Below, piece by piece: positions 1-32,357 of a stretch of 32,357 nt of DNA. The notes beneath the pieces were generated by a model, which was not told where the DNA came from, did not search any database, and was given only the letters and a program-made list of their open reading frames with translations. This stretch comes from a virus, in IMG/VR virus record IMGVR_UViG_3300045988_092796, positions 1 through 32,357 of that record. One strand, written 5' to 3'. A program made the position numbers and the translations under genes. Position 1 is the stretch's first letter; each line of letters opens with the position of its first letter.

Positions 1-22
1 TTTGTTTAGTGGTTTTATAACC
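1..22. repeat. att core copy (lysin-proximal end)
   Basis: tttgtttagtggttttataacc is identical to 32336-32357. The repeat may extend beyond the window edge. Confidence 0.8.
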
Positions 23-235: not shown

Positions 236-261
236 GAAAAAAGATCTATTACGATCTTTTT
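236..261 (-). terminator. Rho-independent terminator of the moron operon
   Basis: aaaaagatc-tattac-gatcttttt stem with T-runs on both strands. It overlaps the stop codon of CDS 260-997. Confidence 0.6.
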
Positions 262-997
262 ATTCAAAATGTAATAAGTTGCTTTCTACGACCGCCTCAA
301 GAGCTAACGATTTTCTTCCTGCATCTTCAAAATCTATAACAATAGTATTTTCTTTGATTTCTACCACTTTACCAATTCCAAAGGATGAATGTTTAACTGT
401 TGAACCCGCAACATCTTTGTGAGCTTCAACCCATTCTTTAACTTTCTCATTTTCTTCTTGTTCTTGAAGAAGACCAGACTGTTTCATTAATTCAACAACC
501 TCAAAATATCCACTTAAAAAGGTTTGTTTGAAATCAGAACCTGTAGATAATTCTGAGCGTTTTACAGGCTCACCCAATCCTAGCATTAGTTGAATAGCTT
601 TCAAAATAACATCATCAGAGACGTTACGACTATCAAGCTGTCCACCAACCGCATCCCCATAAACTCCGTAGAAGTGTCCATCTTCACCATCATGTCCATA
701 GATATCCATAATATTGCTAGTTTCTCTGTTGCAATAAACTGCTCCGTCTTCATTGACAATAGCGTATGATACGTCGTTGTTTTTGATTGTTTCAAGTAGC
801 TGATTTGCTTTTTCCATTTTCAATTCCTCTGCATATTCTGTTAACTTACTAGCCACTTTTAAGCTAAGGTTTTCAATTTTTCTTGTACCTGACTTAATAT
901 TTGACAAGCTAGGCTGGGCCACTCCGGTTGCTCTTGAAATTTCGTATTGGCTGAAATTATCAAGTAACCACTTAATCTTTTTACTATCCGCTTTCAT
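260..997 (-). CDS. Moron protein: N-terminal XRE-like HTH, an unassigned central region, and a C-terminal motif resembling the PcrA/UvrD C-terminal (Tudor-like/DUF3553-like) domain
   Basis: Strong SD aggagaaggtcagATG. HTH-like segment YEISRATGVAQPSLSNIKSGTRKI. C-terminus GSTVKHSSFGIGKVVEIKENTIVIDFEDAGRKSLALEAV matches the G-x-V-x-H-x-x-F-G-x-G-x-V...F...G-x-K-x-L pattern. Located between lysin and att. Confidence 0.6.
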   Translation of the reverse strand: MKADSKKIKWLLDNFSQYEISRATGVAQPSLSNIKSGTRKIENLSLKVASKLTEYAEELKMEKANQLLETIKNNDVSYAIVNEDGAVYCNRETSNIMDIYGHDGEDGHFYGVYGDAVGGQLDSRNVSDDVILKAIQLMLGLGEPVKRSELSTGSDFKQTFLSGYFEVVELMKQSGLLQEQEENEKVKEWVEAHKDVAGSTVKHSSFGIGKVVEIKENTIVIDFEDAGRKSLALEAVVESNLLHFE

Positions 998-1008
998 CTG
1001 ACCTTCTC

Positions 1009-1110
1009 CTATTTAATTAAAATGTAAATAACGGCAACAATTACAATCAACCAGATAATGAATGCTATCCAATCAAAAGGATGCTTGGTAATTCTAAAGT
1101 TTACTTTCAT
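1009..1110 (-). CDS. 33-aa small membrane peptide (MKVNFRITKHPFDWIAFIIWLIVIVAVIYILIK)
   Basis: ORF is below the track cutoff. It has one clear TM helix, and its TAG stop overlaps the SD of the downstream HTH gene. It has no convincing SD of its own. Confidence 0.35.
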   Translation of the reverse strand: MKVNFRITKHPFDWIAFIIWLIVIVAVIYILIK

Positions 1111-1158
1111 AAGAATTTTTGATATACTATACATAAGCCCCCTTAGGGGCGGGGAGGT

Positions 1159-1266
1159 TTACTCCCCGATTTCAATTTGCCATTCAAAGCTGATGATTAC
1201 TAAGTTTATCTTGACGGAGAACTTGAATTTCAGTTTTGATGGCTTTTTCTTATGCTTGGCTCGCAT
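1159..1266 (-). CDS. 35-aa Lys-rich small ORF (MRAKHKKKPSKLKFKFSVKINLVIISFEWQIEIGE), possible leader peptide
   Basis: Perfect SD taggaggtaaagatATG. The stop codon lies in the loop of the GC hairpin at 1151-1167, which is followed by a second GC hairpin at 1137-1150. Confidence 0.45.
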   Translation of the reverse strand: MRAKHKKKPSKLKFKFSVKINLVIISFEWQIEIGE

Positions 1267-1317
1267 ATCTTTACCTCCTATTTTATTTGTAAGGTCTGCC
1301 AACCTCCTTACATTATT

Positions 1318-1346
1318 ATTATATAACATTTGTTATATATTGTCAA
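1318..1346 (-). promoter_or_regulatory. Consensus sigma-A promoter TTGACA-17-TATAAT with a 9-bp-arm palindrome (tatataaca-aa-tgttatata, 1320-1339) filling the spacer
   Basis: Minus strand reads ttgaca atatataacaaatgtta tataat. Both hexamers are perfect, the spacer is 17 nt, and the operator-like dyad sits inside it. Confidence 0.7.
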
Positions 1347-2231: not shown

Positions 2232-2561
2232 TTATTTTTTCCAAGATTCGTTAGCCGTTTTAACGGCTGACTCAAGAAATGTATTTAGCTGATCGTTAGT
2301 AAGATAAATATTGTATGCTTCAAGGCTTTCAATCAAGCTAGTTTTAGCATGTTCAAATTTATCTTGTCCGTTGATTCCCAATTTGTCCGCTACTTGTTCC
2401 GTAGCCTGTACGGCATTTTTAGCTAGGATTTCAGCGGTTTCAATGGCTTTCTTGCCTCCTCTTGTCAAAAGGTACTGTTTAACAGAGTTAACGACAATAC
2501 CAACTAGCACTACTAAAATACTCATAGCTCCGCTTACGACAATATCTGTGATTTGATTCAT
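2232..2561 (-). CDS. Holin, LL-H-like (single N-terminal TM followed by a helical tail)
   Basis: N-terminal TM IVVSGAMSILVVLVGIVV. Sits directly upstream of the lysin. Family assigned from memory. Confidence 0.6.
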   Translation of the reverse strand: MNQITDIVVSGAMSILVVLVGIVVNSVKQYLLTRGGKKAIETAEILAKNAVQATEQVADKLGINGQDKFEHAKTSLIESLEAYNIYLTNDQLNTFLESAVKTANESWKK

Positions 2562-3013
2562 TTTTTACTTTCTCCTTTTTTAATCAATTTACTTGGTCCT
2601 TTCGAACCTTCTTTTAACTTAAATTTTTCATGATCAATATTTTGTTTTACAAGATGATCCAGCCCAGGGATTTCAACACCTAAAGCTGAAAGACTGGCTA
2701 GAATACTAGAACCGTAAGCCGCCATCATTGCAACAATGAAGGCATCAACTACAGGCCCCAGATTCATGTATAGGGCGAATGGATAGCCAATTGCTACAAT
2801 TAAAATCATAGCTGTGTGGCTCACTAGCCCTTTTCTCCATTTGCGACTTGAAAACTCGTGATAGGCCCACGCTCTAGATACTCCTATAACGATATCTAGA
2901 GCAACAATGGCCATCAATAGAAATACAATCATGTGTTCATCAATTCCGTGATCATAGAAGTCACGGACTACTTCAATAATTCCAAAGATTCCATCTGGTT
3001 CTTGATACATCAA
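2558..3013 (-). CDS. Holin, multi-TM (phi LC3/TcdE-like family)
   Basis: Three or four predicted TM segments and a charged C-terminal tail. Lies in the lysis cassette with an ATGA overlap onto the next gene. Confidence 0.6.
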   Translation of the reverse strand: MMYQEPDGIFGIIEVVRDFYDHGIDEHMIVFLLMAIVALDIVIGVSRAWAYHEFSSRKWRKGLVSHTAMILIVAIGYPFALYMNLGPVVDAFIVAMMAAYGSSILASLSALGVEIPGLDHLVKQNIDHEKFKLKEGSKGPSKLIKKGESKK

Positions 3014-3028
3014 TCACACTCCTTTCAA

Positions 3029-3700
3029 TTAAGATTCAGGTTGTGCCACTGGTTGGGTCTCAAGGTCTCCTGATGGTTTGTTTTTCTTATCTTCTTTAGG
3101 AACCTCCCAATTGTAGATTGCAAGCTTGCCATTTTGAAAAAGCGGCCCTTTCAAATCTTTGATTGATTCCCCATTGTATGTGAAATCATAGTTGACTTGT
3201 ACAAGGACACGTTTCCCTTCGCTGTATTGTTCAGTGTGGTCTGGATCAATCAAGGTGAAGATATCATGTTCTTTGTAGGTCTTTCCTAATTGGGCAGCTT
3301 CCACAAGTTCAAGCGCTCGTTTGTAAAGAGTGGGATCAAGTGGATTGTCTTGATTGGTAACAGCTACGAGAACCGACCAATCAGCAAGAGCTTTGTTGTT
3401 CTGGATTTGAGCATCTTTTCTCTCATTTTCTTGAGTTAGCTCTTGGATCTTCTGAATGGCTCCATTGTTAGCTTCAATAGATTTGTCAAGCTCTTTCTTG
3501 AGTGCTACGATAGCACCAGATGGATCCAGCTCCATCCGAACGATATTCAGCACAGCCTCAACCAAAGTAGTTTCGTCTTCTTCTGTGCGATTATTTGATA
3601 GGATTTCTTCAAATACTCGGTACGGGAAATCTTGCTTGATTGCCACTTTCGTCGTATTTGTGATGGGATCAAAAAATCTTGATTGTACTTTATAGTCCAT
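3029..3700 (-). CDS. Hypothetical phage protein (between tail and lysis modules), coiled-coil centre
   Basis: Long ORF translationally coupled to its neighbours; no recognisable motif. Confidence 0.5.
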   Translation of the reverse strand: MDYKVQSRFFDPITNTTKVAIKQDFPYRVFEEILSNNRTEEDETTLVEAVLNIVRMELDPSGAIVALKKELDKSIEANNGAIQKIQELTQENERKDAQIQNNKALADWSVLVAVTNQDNPLDPTLYKRALELVEAAQLGKTYKEHDIFTLIDPDHTEQYSEGKRVLVQVNYDFTYNGESIKDLKGPLFQNGKLAIYNWEVPKEDKKNKPSGDLETQPVAQPES

Positions 3701-3921
3701 TAAGCATTTACCTCGTTTTTATTTTTGATTTCTTCGAACAAGTCCTTCAAATCTTTGTCTGAATCAAGGACAGAGCGATAGACTTCAACTTCGTTATAAA
3801 GTTGAGCTGTTTTTTGTTTTTCATCATTCAGTCGGGCTTTATATTCGACCTCATTGAGTGTTTTATCACTGAGTTGTTGATTTAACTCAGTGATGATTGC
3901 TAGTAAGATATTTTCTTCCAT
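3700..3921 (-). CDS. Hypothetical small coiled-coil phage protein
   Basis: ORF with an SD (aaaaaggagaaaacATG); ATG/stop overlap with the next gene. Confidence 0.5.
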   Translation of the reverse strand: MEENILLAIITELNQQLSDKTLNEVEYKARLNDEKQKTAQLYNEVEVYRSVLDSDKDLKDLFEEIKNKNEVNA

Positions 3922-3935
3922 GTTTTCTCCTTTTT

Positions 3936-6900
3936 CTATTTAAAGCTGTACTTGTTAAGTACGCCCGTTATGTGACTTCTGATGTTCTGGTTTTTCAGAT
4001 CCCAGCCATATTTGGAAATTTGACCAAGGCATGTCAATAGATCCCATAAATAAGTACCAACGTTATAAGCGTTTTTACCTATAAAAATATTATCTATCCA
4101 AGCTCCTGAAAAATGCTTGTCACCACGCCCCAAATTGTGCCGTACGCCCTTTTCATTTCCTGGAATCAGATAAGAGCTTCCATCTCGCGTGTTATTGTGG
4201 ATAATCCACGGGCTACGATAGCGTCCGTTTGAGTAGAAGATGATACGGTCTGATACGATTTCATAGAGCGATTCATTTTCTGACCCGCTCTTACCAGACC
4301 AGAGACGAGTTCCAGCGAATGTCTCATTCTCAGTATTTTCCGTCTTGTCATGGTTAGTACCAATTACGATTCGGGCAGCCTTCGAATCCCTCACCCGCTC
4401 TCCGATAAATCCGCTCTGGTTTAACTTGATAAACTCTGATGCTGTAGTATCATCAATCCGCCTGATTACTCCTGTATTCGAATATAAATTAATACTTCCA
4501 TCGTTTAGATTAAAGTCAGTTGCTTTATTAATCGAGAGCAACCGACCGCCCTGCATCCGCTCAGCACTGAAATCGATCGAGTTAATCTGAGTGATAAAGG
4601 CTCTCTGAGAAGTCAATTCTCGGATAAAGGCTTGATTGGCAATTAATTTACTGATCAAGGCATAATCTACCTGAACCTTATCAGCAGTAACAGCGTTAGC
4701 TGCTAAAATTTCACTGGTTACTGATCCAGCCTTAAAGTGGCCCGTCTCTAATGTGCCAGTTTTAAGATGTCGGCCCAAGATAGACCCATCAACAATCATA
4801 TCCCCTTTGACCTTGATTAATTTTGAAATCAAGGCAATCGATTCAGGATCCTGCACGAATAATGAGCTAATAGTCTTGCCGTTGATGGTTTTTCCAACGC
4901 CAAAAGTGATTTGACCTGGTGTGATGTCTACATCAGTCTTTTTGATAGTATCATCAATTTGACTTGCCAATTTCTTCAACTCACCATCGATGGTCTGACT
5001 ATATTCTGCCATCTTTGTTTCCAGCTTCTTGCCAGCTTCGTCTTCAGCAGCCTGCCAAGGTCGCTCAATCGTTCCCTCATAGACATCCACATCAGCGATG
5101 TATAGTGCAGATTCGTCACCTTCAGTTTTACCGCTACTTTTAAACCTCAAAAAAGCTTCATCATAAATTTCAGAATCAACCTTAAAATAAAATCTTTTAG
5201 CTTCATTGTTAGGTAGCTGTACTCCTTCAAGCAATGTAATGAATCTTTCGAATAGTTGTGCAGATCCTTTTCTTCTGAGGAAAAATACTAATTCAGCACC
5301 TTTTAAATTTTCCGAACAAAAAAGTGTAATCCCAACAGTATAAGTGGTTTTTTGCCTAACATTAAATCGATGAGAAGAAAGAAACTTGGAATACGCACTA
5401 TTTCTATTGATTATAGCTAGTAGCTTACGAGTCCCGTCAAAATATAAAGGATTAGTCACTATTTTTGCTGTTGGTTCGGAATCTGGAGAGATTTCACCCC
5501 AATTTTTTAGATTTTGAGGATCACCACTGTTCAGGACAAGATTTTGTCCACCAGTTTTCAACTCTTCAAATCTTCGAGTAATCCCACGAGAATCTTCTTC
5601 GTATTTGGATTTTGATATATAGCCAGATTCTATATCCTCTCTAAATGCGGTCAAACTAGATGCTGTCTTATCTTCGATGTACTTCTTCAACGTCTCTTGA
5701 CGTGTTCCATCAGCTTGAACATAAGATTCAAAAGATGTGATTTTAGTCTCTAAACCTCTAGCAGTTTTCTCGAACTCAGCTTGGAATGTACTTGTGGCAT
5801 CTTCGGGGGCTTCGTTCCAGTCGCCAGGCATGTTACCCTCAAAAACGGCTGGAGCACATATTTCAAGCCAATCACCTTTCTTTTGGCCATAATTTGCCCC
5901 GTGTCGCCCAAAAATGACACGTTTAGGCACACTTACGGGTGTTTGGGTCCATTTTACCCAATATAGTCTCCATTCGTTAGTAATAGTAAATATAGCATAT
6001 CCATCAATCAAGTTGTCTGCAACGAATCCTGTACTAGTAACTACTTTTGTAACACTGTTAGGGCTAAATAGATGCAGTACACATCTATAATCGTTGCGAG
6101 AAGCCCTGGCCCAAAATATAGCTGTATATTCGGTTCCAACCATTGGCACAGTTGTATTCGTCACGAACATATCAATAACCTTTTGATTTTCTTGCGTGAT
6201 TTCAGACCGAATTACTTTAAATCCATTGAATTCACCGACTACTCCTTTAATCCCTGGGAATAGACGAGTCCCTTTTATCAAATTTCGTCTACCGATTTTG
6301 ATATTTGAGATTGTCTCTTTAATCCCTTGAGCCGTCTGCTCTACATAAGCCCGATCAGCTTTATTTTGTGCTACCTTCACAAGGTCAGAAATCGCTTTGT
6401 TGGTACTTTGCTCATAATGGGACTGCGCACCCGATATACCAGCAAACTTACTTGCAGTCGAAGCCTTAAAGTTATCCATTTCTTTTTGGATCGCAGTGTT
6501 CATTTCTGACAGCCCGTTAGCAGTAGCCTTAAGATCCTCTACCTTGACTTCAATGCCATTGTATCTAGCTTTGAATTCTTCTATAATTTCATCTTTATTA
6601 GTCTTGTTAGCAGCTTTTATTTTCTCAGAGATTTCAGCGGTAATCTCTTCCTTTACTACCTCGGCTTTAGCCTTAGCCTGTTCGATTCCGTCAGTAATGT
6701 CCTGCTCTAGACTCTTAACCTTCTTATCGTACTCAGCATTAGCATTATCGATAAGTTGTTGGACCTTTGCATCATGACTAGCAATTTTATCCGCCACCGA
6801 ATCATTAATGATTTGACCGATAGCTCCACCAAGAGATCGCGAAATTTTGCCAAATCCGATTTTCTTTAGCTTCTTGGCCATCGGACCATAACTATACTTT

Positions 6901-21008: not shown

Positions 21009-21130
21009 TGAGGGGGGCCTTTCTTTTTTAGGGTAGGGGGGGTGATATTTTTAATATCATTTTTTTTCTAACCAGGGTATTTTTTTTATCAAGCCTACCC
21101 CATTTTTTTATCAGGGGGAGGGTACTTGAA
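21009..21130. repeat. Array of G-runs with AGGGTA motifs at 21030, 21074 and 21119 (44-45 bp spacing), each next to a T-tract; one inverted TACCCC (21096) and the palindrome tgatatt-ttt-aatatca (21043-21059)
   Basis: Read directly. Noncoding region upstream of the HNH gene. Confidence 0.6.
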
Positions 21131-21252
21131 TTTAACATATCTTATATTCTGTTAATTTAAACCATAGGGTCGTCTTCCTTACTCTCTCATAAGATGTATT
21201 TGATTTTGCTTAATATGAATTTACTTTTTTTTATTATGTTAAATAAATACTG

Positions 21253-31168: not shown

Positions 31169-32272
31169 ATGATCAAGAAATATAAAAAAGGTGACGGCTT
31201 TGCTTACTATTTTAAAGCATACCATGGGATTGATCCTTTGACTGGTAAGAAGATAGTAACTCTTAGGCGTGGTTTTAAAACTGAGCGTGAAGCTAGACTG
31301 GCTGAAGCTAAGTGTTTAGCTGATTATGAGAAGAAAACCTTTAGAAGCAGAAATACAACTACTACTTTTAATCAGGTATATGAAACCTGGAAAGCGCATT
31401 ATAGAAATACCGTAAAAGAATCAACCTACGTTAGCCAAATTGACAAAGCAGATAGACTTATTATCCCTCATTTTGGAGATAAGCCTATAAATAAAATAAG
31501 TTTGACCATGTGTCAAACTCAGGTTAATAAATGGGCTGAAGAATATAAACGATTTTTTGGAATTATCAGCATAACTAATCAGATTTTTGATTATGCAATA
31601 TCTATGGAATTGATTGATAGCAATCCAATGAAAAAGACACTGAAGCCTAAACGACAAAAAAATAATACAGATGAACTTGAAAAGTTCTACAACAAAGAAG
31701 AACTTAAGGAATTCTTTAAAATCGTTAAAGGCTTCGACGATAATGAAATGCTGACGTATTTTAGATTACTAGCTTTTACTGGAATGCGAAAGAATGAAAT
31801 TAGCGCTCTAAGATGGTCTGATATCGATTTTAAAAAAGGACAGATTACTGTCAATCAAACCTTGGCCAAGGGTGAAGATAATAAACTTATCTTTCAGACT
31901 CCAAAGACAAAAAAGAGTGCCCGAACAATTACCCTCGATTCAAAAACAATCAAGGTTTTAAAAGATTGGCACAAGTATAGTACAAAAGGACTTCTTTTTA
32001 AAAATGAGAATGGAGAACCTAAGAGTGTTGTCCATGTCAACAATATGTTGAACAGAATCTGGAGAAAGTATCCTGATTTTAAACGTATCACCCCACACGG
32101 ATTCAGACACACCCACTGCTCCCTATTGTTCGAGGCTGGAGCAACTATTAAAGAGGTTCAGGAACGATTAGGGCATGAAAACATACAAACAACGATGGAC
32201 ATATATGCTCATGTTACCCAAAAAGCAAAAAATGAGGTTGCTGACAAATTCGCTTCATACATTGGTTTTTAA
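31169..32272 (+). CDS. int: Tyrosine integrase
   Basis: Full-length (367 aa), with RKNEISALRW, HGFRHTH and LGHENIQTTMDIYAHV motifs. Adjacent to the att core. Confidence 0.95.
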   Translation: MIKKYKKGDGFAYYFKAYHGIDPLTGKKIVTLRRGFKTEREARLAEAKCLADYEKKTFRSRNTTTTFNQVYETWKAHYRNTVKESTYVSQIDKADRLIIPHFGDKPINKISLTMCQTQVNKWAEEYKRFFGIISITNQIFDYAISMELIDSNPMKKTLKPKRQKNNTDELEKFYNKEELKEFFKIVKGFDDNEMLTYFRLLAFTGMRKNEISALRWSDIDFKKGQITVNQTLAKGEDNKLIFQTPKTKKSARTITLDSKTIKVLKDWHKYSTKGLLFKNENGEPKSVVHVNNMLNRIWRKYPDFKRITPHGFRHTHCSLLFEAGATIKEVQERLGHENIQTTMDIYAHVTQKAKNEVADKFASYIGF

Positions 32273-32276
32273 AATA

Positions 32277-32298
32277 TGGGTATCATGGTGGGTATCAA
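32277..32298 (+). repeat. Two direct TGGGTATCA repeats, 12-bp start-to-start; candidate arm-type integrase sites
   Basis: Copies at 32277-32285 and 32289-32298. Same motif, spacing and orientation as 158-179. Confidence 0.55.
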
Positions 32299-32309: not shown

Positions 32310-32342
32310 AGGCTCTCTGATTTCTCAGAAAGCCTTTTGTTT
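32310..32342 (+). terminator. Intrinsic terminator whose T-tract is the start of the att core
   Basis: aggctctctga-tttc-tcagaaagcct (one mismatch) followed by tttgttt. An A-run upstream makes it potentially bidirectional. Confidence 0.6.
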
Positions 32343-32357
32343 AGTGGTTTTATAACC
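32336..32357. repeat. att core copy (integrase-proximal end)
   Basis: Identical to 1-22. Confidence 0.8.

Follow-up and report, generated by a model that had tools for sequence, protein, structure and literature searches.

In Streptococcus sp. F0441, the anti-CRISPR-associated (Aca) protein Aca11 represses two anti-CRISPR (acr) promoters by way of an inverted repeat between the -35 and -10 hexamers, as documented in two papers of 2025 by electrophoretic mobility shift assays (EMSA), scrambled-repeat controls and reporter assays (PMC12658196, PMC12282945). Aca11 binds the repeats IRacrIIA3 and IRacrIIA25 in EMSA, and the repeat is required for repression (PMC12658196, PMC12282945). Mutagenesis showed that Y18, Q28 and R39 are needed for DNA binding and V3, T5 and L44 for dimerisation; mutation of Q28 or R39 abolishes repression, and that of Y18 has a partial effect (PMC12658196, PMC12282945). 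Here we describe a related transcription unit in a viral DNA of 32,357 nucleotides (nt), positions 1 to 32,357 of the IMG/VR record IMGVR_UViG_3300045988_092796, and the term "window" refers to this whole stretch. The unit consists of a strong promoter, two very small open reading frames (ORF1 and ORF2) and a gene for a protein of 245 amino acids (aa; ORF3). We read it, with a probability of roughly 0.8, as a self-repressed anti-CRISPR operon of the Aca11 family, an exchangeable cassette that a gordonii-like Streptococcus prophage carries at its lysin-attR end.

The second body of work that bears on this unit concerns the inhibitor AcrIIA24, a 104-aa protein of S. thermophilus phage CHPC930 (AZF92405.1; sequence from Table S1 of PMC8934645). 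AcrIIA24 binds the HNH domain of the Cas9 protein St3Cas9 and stops DNA cleavage, not DNA binding (PMC8934645, PMC12282945), and deletion of its loop E32-D38 loses both HNH binding and activity (PMC12282945). Orthologues of AcrIIA24, 29, 31 and 32 are known as fusions to Aca proteins (PMC8934645). In S. tigurinus 859, a gene named acrIIA24 is reported to be expressed in the lysogen, and the Acrs tested there in cell-free transcription-translation (TXTL) inhibited cleavage by Cas9, not binding (bioRxiv 10.64898/2026.06.01.729453).

All features of the unit are on the minus strand, and their positions are those of the window. The promoter (1346-1318) matches the sigma-70 consensus at 12 of 12 positions, with TTGACA at 1346-1341, a 17-nt spacer and TATAAT at 1323-1318. 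It is the only such perfect match in the window, compared with 0.05 expected from shuffled sequences, and the predicted transcription start is near 1311. The spacer is filled by an inverted repeat (1319-1340), an operator of the Aca11 type, whose core ATATAACAAATGTTATAT (1338-1321) is identical to that of IRacrIIA3 and IRacrIIA25. The core occurs exactly once in the window, where sites with three or fewer mismatches are expected only 0.09 times by chance. Operator and promoter together (TTGACAATATATAACAAATGTTATATAAT in the window) agree with the published acrIIA3 promoter probe (TTGACAATATATAACAAATGTTATATACT) at 28 of 29 bases. The only other operator-like site, ATATAAGATATGTTAAAT at 21130-21147, has three mismatches to the Aca11 core; we rejected it as a second operator, as it is probably a chance match.

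ORF3 (997-260; Shine-Dalgarno sequence AGGAGAAGG) is the last gene of the unit, and its product has three parts. Residues 1-60 (997-818) form an Aca11-like helix-turn-helix (HTH), the putative repressor module, which is 48% identical to Aca11 (PDB 9lx2; E 1.9e-12, phmmer against the PDB). A sequence search of the PDB also matches ORF3 with AcrIIA15 (8jfo; E 2e-6). The AlphaFold 2 (AF2) model of ORF3 has a mean predicted local distance difference test score (pLDDT) of 69.6, with values above 90 at residues 11-60. The modelled HTH superposes closely on Aca11 (template modelling (TM) score 0.87, root mean square deviation (RMSD) 0.9; Foldseek), and residues 1-60 superpose equally on the N-terminal domain of AcrIIA15 (8jfr; TM 0.88). 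Y18, Q28, S32 and R39 of Aca11, as well as the dimer residue L44, are identical in ORF3. Judged by this homology, the ORF3 HTH and the spacer dyad correspond to a known repressor/operator pair of the Aca11 type.

Residues 61-162 (817-512) constitute an AcrIIA24 anti-CRISPR domain. By BLASTP, ORF3 residues 61-161 align with residues 1-101 of the 104 of AcrIIA24 at 64 of 101 identical positions (63%; E 2e-49), and the gene matches the phage CHPC930 AcrIIA24 gene at the DNA level as well. The HNH-binding loop of AcrIIA24 (E32-D38), ETNNIMD, corresponds to ETSNIMD at ORF3 residues 92-98; the stretch from T93 to D98 does not vary in an alignment of 26 ORF3 homologues. An exhaustive search with residues 62-245 yields only 51 clusters. 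Among the homologues, the AcrIIA24 domain occurs alone (∼100 aa), with an N-terminal HTH (160-190 aa), in the full three-domain form, and with a C-terminal extension without the HTH (P0122, 184 aa). The close homologue in S. oralis subsp. tigurinus 859 (locus L029; LNVH01000004.1, gene ATE37_01985, L029 positions 3001-3735) has 244 aa and is 74% identical to ORF3; it lies between AcrIIA25.1 and AcrIIA3 homologues, and is the gene named acrIIA24 in bioRxiv 10.64898/2026.06.01.729453. On these matches, the unit of the window falls among the described acr operons under Aca11 control, with an AcrIIA24 fusion, which has a studied close homologue, as its main protein.

Residues 163-245 (511-263) contain a helical linker followed by a Tudor domain of the PcrA/UvrD type (approximately residues 196-245; 412-263). 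Pfam matches at residues 198-233 fall below threshold (DUF3553, 17.2 versus 20.3 bits; PcrA_UvrD_tudor, 16.6 versus 23.9 bits), and some ORF3 homologues carry a precomputed PF12073 match. The modelled domain, where the local pLDDT is ∼78, superposes on the C-terminal domain of Thermus UvrD (7egt_B) with a TM score of 0.83, an RMSD of 1.7 and 33% identity, and on 9dqs, 5dma and 7egs with TM scores of 0.65-0.72 (Foldseek); 7egs is the UvrD C-terminal domain bound to the RNA polymerase lobe. The alignment of this part of ORF3 was made to the Thermus UvrD domain, and PcrA numbering was mapped onto it by motif spacing. On the basis of motif and spacing, ORF3 residues H203, F206, K229 and L231 correspond to PcrA H681, W684, K712 and L714, whose mutation abolishes binding to RNA polymerase (PMC5397179). 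Among the ORF3 homologues, H203, F206 and L231 are invariant and K229 is nearly so. The Tudor domain of PcrA binds a helicase-interaction motif found in the RNA polymerase β subunit and in UvrB (PMC8318588), and by analogy the ORF3 domain probably docks onto one of these two proteins. Such a domain is not mentioned in the Acr literature cited here. A PADLOC match to DpdF (E 5e-6) was rejected as a sign of a defence system, as it is confined to the Tudor-like C-terminal end of that helicase, and NCBIfam matches to GreA and YajC, which lie far below the cut-offs, were likewise rejected.

The original prediction had placed at this site a perfect TTGACA-17-TATAAT promoter with a dyad in its spacer, followed by two micro-ORFs and a 245-aa HTH protein, and all of these are present. 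Its comparison with the acr-aca layout, in which a strong promoter is autorepressed by the HTH protein encoded last, is borne out at the level of homology by the Aca11 operator, the Aca11-homologous HTH and the AcrIIA24 domain within the same protein. It had further held that none of the three products belongs to a known family. For ORF3 this was wrong: the structure search that it proposed for the 245-aa protein finds Aca11, AcrIIA15 and the UvrD C-terminal domain, and the protein as a whole combines Aca11, AcrIIA24 and PcrA/UvrD Tudor domains. For ORF1 and ORF2 the statement holds, as Pfam, PHROGs, NCBIfam and PADLOC give no family for either. The suggestion of an undescribed system must be narrowed in the same way. 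It does not apply to ORF3, since AcrIIA24 Acr-Aca fusions are published and the 74% identical homologue has been studied, and it holds only for the micro-ORFs and the Tudor extension.

A genome scan yields 21 loci with ORF3 homologues. When the full-length homologues are aligned, residues 61-245 are highly conserved, and the first 60 residues are present in at least four unrelated-looking variants. In all, five HTH variants can be distinguished, each paired with a dyad of its own, which lies in the spacer of a near-consensus promoter. HTH types that share Y18, Q28 and R39, namely those of the window and the canonical Aca11 type (for example in L029), share the operator TTGACAATATATAACAAATGTTATATA(A/C)T. 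In each of the four other types this promoter position is taken by a separate dyad: the "MSKADFNKIQKLL" type (L026-L031) has TTGACT-ACCGCATTATAATGCGGT-ATAAT, the "MRKQIEKVL" type (L038-L044) has TTGACT-TTCTCGGTGTACCGTGA-TATAAT, the stand-alone HTH of 23TH and SpSL1 has TTGACA-TTATACAACTTTAGTTG-TATAAT, and the stand-alone HTH of the S. suis phage Bonnie has TTGATT-GCTATTATAAATAATAG-TATAAT. Modularity and the covariation of HTH and dyad, both read from sequence, give indirect support to autoregulation. Given that the window and canonical Aca11 types share an operator, the Aca11 of a resident prophage could repress an incoming cassette, and vice versa.

The prophage itself shares ∼90% identity with Javan240 and Javan242, two prophages of S. 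gordonii, and its relatives show how the unit is exchanged. Javan242 (L125, MK448882) has the same lysin terminator, A/T-rich tract and -35 hexamer as the window and starts to diverge inside the spacer, which indicates that the cassette was exchanged at the promoter itself. S. gordonii phage PH15 has the window's promoter, ORF1, ORF2 and HTH at 93% DNA identity, followed by an AcrIIA31-like C-terminal domain. From the cargo of Javan242 and PH15, the lysin-att junction is a hot spot for operator-controlled cassettes. In another locus (L023), the unit is immediately preceded by an AcrIIA3 homologue, and there is no free-standing aca gene. The survey of related prophages that had been proposed along with the original prediction thus finds the whole unit preserved in numerous phage contigs, which excludes a pattern due to chance.

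Several further observations were made in these relatives. Javan242 (minus strand, 2100-2200 and 505-2088) carries the spacer dyad TTGACAATATACGCAATGCGTGTTATAAT and other small genes, including one for a 104-aa Gp111-like protein, and gp55-57 of PH15 are homologues of the Javan242 small genes. About 120 bp downstream of the PH15 acr operon there is a full-length ROOL RNA (Rfam RF03087, 349.6 bits; L001, NC_010945, 469-1035, minus strand), which is absent from the window. In Streptococcus sp. F0441 and relatives (L034-L036, ∼3824-4436), the AcrIIA24-fusion gene is followed by a consensus promoter with the dyad TTGACAAACTATCTTTTATGATATATAAT, which drives a gene for a 183-aa protein (MEINNDIKDLILEYVGRYF...). 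Finally, other HTH variants of the AcrIIA24 fusion (L026-L046; e.g., L026 2700-2995 and L041 2680-3020) follow different micro-ORFs. These encode a 48-51-aa protein with the basic tail KKRKPRPRKFK (phrog_3399, E 5e-26) and, after a hairpin, a 23-41-aa membrane peptide, so that the layout is that of the window and the sequences are unrelated.

The two micro-ORFs of the window precede ORF3 in the unit. ORF1 (1266-1159; Shine-Dalgarno AGGAGG at 1279-1274) encodes a basic micro-protein of 35 aa, MRAKHKKKPSKLKFKFSVKINLVIISFEWQIEIGE. ORF2 (1134-1009) encodes a micro-protein of 41 aa with one transmembrane helix, or of 33 aa if the alternative start at 1110 is used. Between them are twin GC-rich hairpins (1167-1137; folding free energy (ΔG) -22.3), the first of which (1167-1151) holds the ORF1 stop codon, with the second at 1150-1137. 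The two-hairpin layout is also seen in 23TH/SpSL1 and in Bonnie, where the sequence of hairpin 1 differs and the loops are variable. The hairpins could act as a partial terminator, a processing site or a stabiliser, and may adjust how much ORF1 is made relative to the genes that follow. At its basic N-terminus (KHKKKPSKLKFK), ORF1 resembles the phrog_3399 micro-protein at its basic C-terminus (KEKKRKPRPRKFK), a similarity indistinguishable from chance.

A degenerate scan for the ORF1 core motif finds 82 viral contigs. Together with the window and earlier loci these give 86 units, 81 of which could be analysed, the other five having no assignable ORF1 start. Across the 81 units ORF1 has 34-36 aa and ORF2 33-41 aa. 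The gene that follows the ORF1-hairpins-ORF2 module is a stand-alone Aca11-like HTH of 59-63 aa in 65 units, the 245-aa fusion in seven, a 122-aa AcrIIA31-like fusion in three and a 66-aa HTH in two; in the remainder it is lost to contig ends. The range of the module extends from phages of the mitis group and of gordonii to those of S. suis. In the largest subfamily, the ratio of nonsynonymous to synonymous polymorphism (pN/pS) of ORF1 is 0.29 in frame, compared with 1.03 and 1.44 out of frame, and that of ORF2 is 0.22 in frame, compared with 0.64 and 1.16 (HTH gene control, 0.15 in frame). Variable sites of ORF2 are distributed 4/4/13 and 7/4/14 over the three codon positions in two comparisons, and the subfamilies of ORF1 differ by in-frame indels. 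By these codon signatures, ORF1 and ORF2 are real genes under purifying selection and form the conserved core of the operon family. ORF2 is represented by only two clusters, both "hypothetical", in a collection of 5.8 billion proteins, a scarcity that fits genes that gene callers usually skip.

Taken together, the unit would work as follows. On phage entry or induction, the consensus promoter would fire at full strength, as its homologues suggest, and yield one transcript that encodes ORF1, ORF2 and ORF3. The AcrIIA24 domain of ORF3 would bind the HNH nuclease domain of a type II-A Cas9 and so block DNA cleavage. As ORF3 builds up, its Aca11-like HTH would dimerise on the inverted repeat between the -35 and -10 hexamers and reduce promoter activity to a low, constant level during lysogeny. 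The Tudor domain would probably be docked on the RNA polymerase β subunit or UvrB, and ORF1 and ORF2, which occupy the "acr position", would be further payload.

A number of points weigh against this reading of the unit as a self-repressed anti-CRISPR operon. ORF3 departs from Aca11 at two DNA-contact residues (K22R and K38T) and at two residues of the dimer interface (V3A and T5S), all of them conservative changes. The AcrIIA24 part of the AF2 model is of low confidence (pLDDT 42-72), which we ascribe to the shallow alignment, and it was not used for claims about the fold. That the ORF3 of the window binds the dyad and represses the promoter is expected by analogy with its homologues. Inhibition of the host Cas9 is likewise expected by analogy, the CRISPR content of the host lying outside the window, and the TXTL construct for the S. 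tigurinus homologue was presumably the full 244-aa gene. The ORF1-ORF2-HTH module is also found in the pneumococcal phage SpSL1, and pneumococci are, to our knowledge, without CRISPR-Cas. It follows that the operon may originally have served a purpose other than anti-CRISPR, and that the peptides need not be anti-CRISPRs.

This last point leads to the alternative that survives best, which we hold to be possible, if short of even odds. Here the micro-proteins come first: ORF1 and ORF2 would act at the membrane, to exclude superinfecting phages, manipulate the host or inhibit a defence other than CRISPR, under an Aca-like autorepressor, and the AcrIIA24-Tudor part would be a late addition in a minority of lineages. 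The composition of the family speaks for it, as 65 of the 81 units hold only ORF1, ORF2 and the stand-alone HTH of 59-63 aa, as do the range of the module from mitis-group/gordonii to S. suis phages, the purifying selection on both micro-genes and the occurrence in SpSL1. The ORF3 of the window, however, does carry a full AcrIIA24 domain, the micro-proteins match no family in the four databases searched, and they may be anti-CRISPRs in their own right. This alternative is compatible with the anti-CRISPR operon reading and is, across the family, likely. A more far-reaching version is doubtful. In it, a basic protein of 34-36 aa and a membrane protein of 33-41 aa, both skipped by gene callers, would be Aca-controlled effectors whose target is a host defence or process distinct from Cas9, and the Tudor domain would tether the anti-CRISPR/repressor to RNA polymerase or UvrB. 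If this were true, such tethering could help to deal with cleavage-blocked Cas9 left as a roadblock on the phage DNA.

It is very unlikely that the tiny-ORF region functions as RNA instead of coding for protein, either as an anti-CRISPR RNA that resembles a viral single-guide RNA (vsgRNA) or trans-activating CRISPR RNA (tracrRNA), or as a leader-attenuator. Phage single-guide RNAs (sgRNAs) do occur in Streptococcus acr islands of this type (bioRxiv 10.64898/2026.06.01.729453), the ORF1 region varies less than ORF2 at the nucleotide level, and the twin hairpins and leader hairpin are conserved. Against this, positions 1-1500 give no tracrRNA or other relevant Rfam match at E≤10, and with blastn-short neither the S. 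tigurinus vsgRNA region nor the SpCas9 sgRNA scaffold gives a match. In addition, the length of ORF1 is constrained to 34-36 aa in all analysed units, indels between subfamilies keep the frame, and the pN/pS of 0.29 is seen in the ORF1 frame only. On the strength of the Rfam search, the blastn-short comparison and the codon signature we rejected the vsgRNA/tracrRNA reading of the ORF1 region, and the hairpins may have a role at the RNA level alongside the peptides.

Least probable of all is that ORF2 is a membrane peptide like a type I toxin, held in check by a short antisense RNA from a plus-strand promoter facing the hairpins: there is a promoter-like site at 1100-1128 (TTTACT-17-TATACT with a TG) and a terminator-like hairpin at 1150-1168, and TTTACT-17-TAnnnT is seen by eye at the same place in 23TH and Bonnie, but the site scores only 9 of 12, and AT-rich DNA of this kind should hold 8 ± 3 such sites per 3 kb, its -35 hexamer reads as the complementary strand of conserved ORF2 codons, by which its conservation is explained, the antisense terminator is not conserved in other subfamilies, and the operon already has a dedicated protein repressor.

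The unit of the window is set between the lysin gene and an attachment (att) site. An exact 22-bp direct repeat, TTTGTTTAGTGGTTTTATAACC, is present at both ends of the window (1-22 and 32336-32357) as the att core, and the integrase gene is at 31169-32272, which together indicate that the window is one complete prophage cut exactly at its att cores and confirm the predicted placement between lysin and att. The lysin gene, with an SH3_5 domain, is at 1480-2217. Its strong intrinsic terminator (1422-1399, minus strand; 10-bp stem with seven GC pairs, T-run, ΔG -20) is the upstream limit of the unit. From there to the -35 hexamer, positions 1347-1392 form an A/T-rich, UP-element-like tract, read directly from the sequence, that is kept in all promoter classes and in Javan242. 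The 5' leader contains a hairpin (1289-1311; RNAfold ΔG -6.1) that carries a Shine-Dalgarno-like AAGGAGG without a start codon; the leaders of 23TH and Bonnie hold equivalent hairpins, and it is possible that the hairpin stabilises the mRNA. Downstream of ORF3, the dedicated terminator that had been predicted takes the form of an AT-rich hairpin and T-run (∼260-236), and the claim needs correction on this point, as the hairpin is only weak (RNAfold ΔG -8.8) and the terminator scan did not pick it up.

Three other features of the window were noted. Paired GGGTATCA direct repeats are found just inside the prophage ends, at 159-178 (GGGTATCAATTTGGGTATCA) and 32278-32297 (GGGTATCATGGTGGGTATCA), and may be candidate arm-type binding sites of the integrase. 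Upstream of the SH3_5 lysin there are two holin genes of different families, Holin_LLH (2232-2561) and Phage_holin_4_1 (2558-3013), which overlap by four bases. An antisense ORF of 103 aa on the plus strand (1058-1369) crosses the promoter of the unit, and was disregarded as spurious.

The main value of these results is a precise annotation, that of a self-repressed acr operon of the Aca11 type that ends in a gene for an Aca11-like::AcrIIA24::Tudor fusion. Beyond the cited literature, they point to one AcrIIA24-Tudor body joined to at least four HTH modules, each with its own dyad, which amounts to a natural swap experiment in Aca specificity; the sets of HTH and dyad are ready-made orthogonal repressor/operator pairs. 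Also new relative to that literature is a Tudor domain, with the RNA polymerase-binding residues intact, on a validated family of Cas9 inhibitors, which hints at a link between anti-CRISPR activity and transcription or repair. Finally, at least 81 phage units have their "acr slot" taken up by two micro-genes that are under purifying selection and hardly ever annotated, and whose products are candidates for new anti-defence or host-control peptides.

Of the known systems, the acrIIA25.1-aca11 and acrIIA3 operons of Streptococcus sp. F0441 (PMC8934645, PMC12282945, PMC12658196; PDB 9lx2) are those with which the unit shares most of its regulatory features. The -35 hexamer, the 17-nt spacer and the inverted-repeat operator within it are alike; so are the homologous four-helix HTH, in which Y18, Q28 and R39 are kept, the position at the prophage end after the lysis genes, and the logic of a strong promoter with autorepression. 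The differences are that Aca11 is a free protein of 63 aa, whereas the Aca of the window, only 48% identical to it, makes up the N-terminal module of a 245-aa fusion; that the -10 hexamer is TATACT in F0441 and TATAAT in the window, which also has the leader hairpin with its Shine-Dalgarno-like sequence; and that the acr slots hold AcrIIA25 or AcrIIA3 in F0441 and the two micro-ORFs in the window.

The AcrIIA24 of S. tigurinus 859 has the same three-domain architecture and an identical operator upstream. It differs in having the canonical Aca11 HTH and in its surroundings, as it comes after a vsgRNA and AcrIIA25.1 and before AcrIIA3, without ORF1 and ORF2. The AcrIIA24 of phage CHPC930, in contrast, is a stand-alone domain, to which ORF3 adds the N-terminal Aca module and an 84-residue C-terminal extension that ends in the Tudor domain. 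This Tudor domain resembles those of the PcrA/UvrD helicases (5dma, 7egt, 7egs and 9dqs; PF21196/DUF3553) in its five-strand barrel and its motif H-x-x-F-G...K-x-L, but it sits on an anti-CRISPR/repressor instead of a helicase, and its Pfam scores are sub-threshold. AcrIIA1, AcrIIA13-15 and AcrIIA32 are similar in principle, in that a single polypeptide is both a Cas9 inhibitor and, by way of an HTH that binds a promoter palindrome, the repressor of its own promoter. These proteins have other inhibitor domains and none is reported with a Tudor domain, and in AcrIIA32 the Aca module, Aca13, is at the C-terminus.

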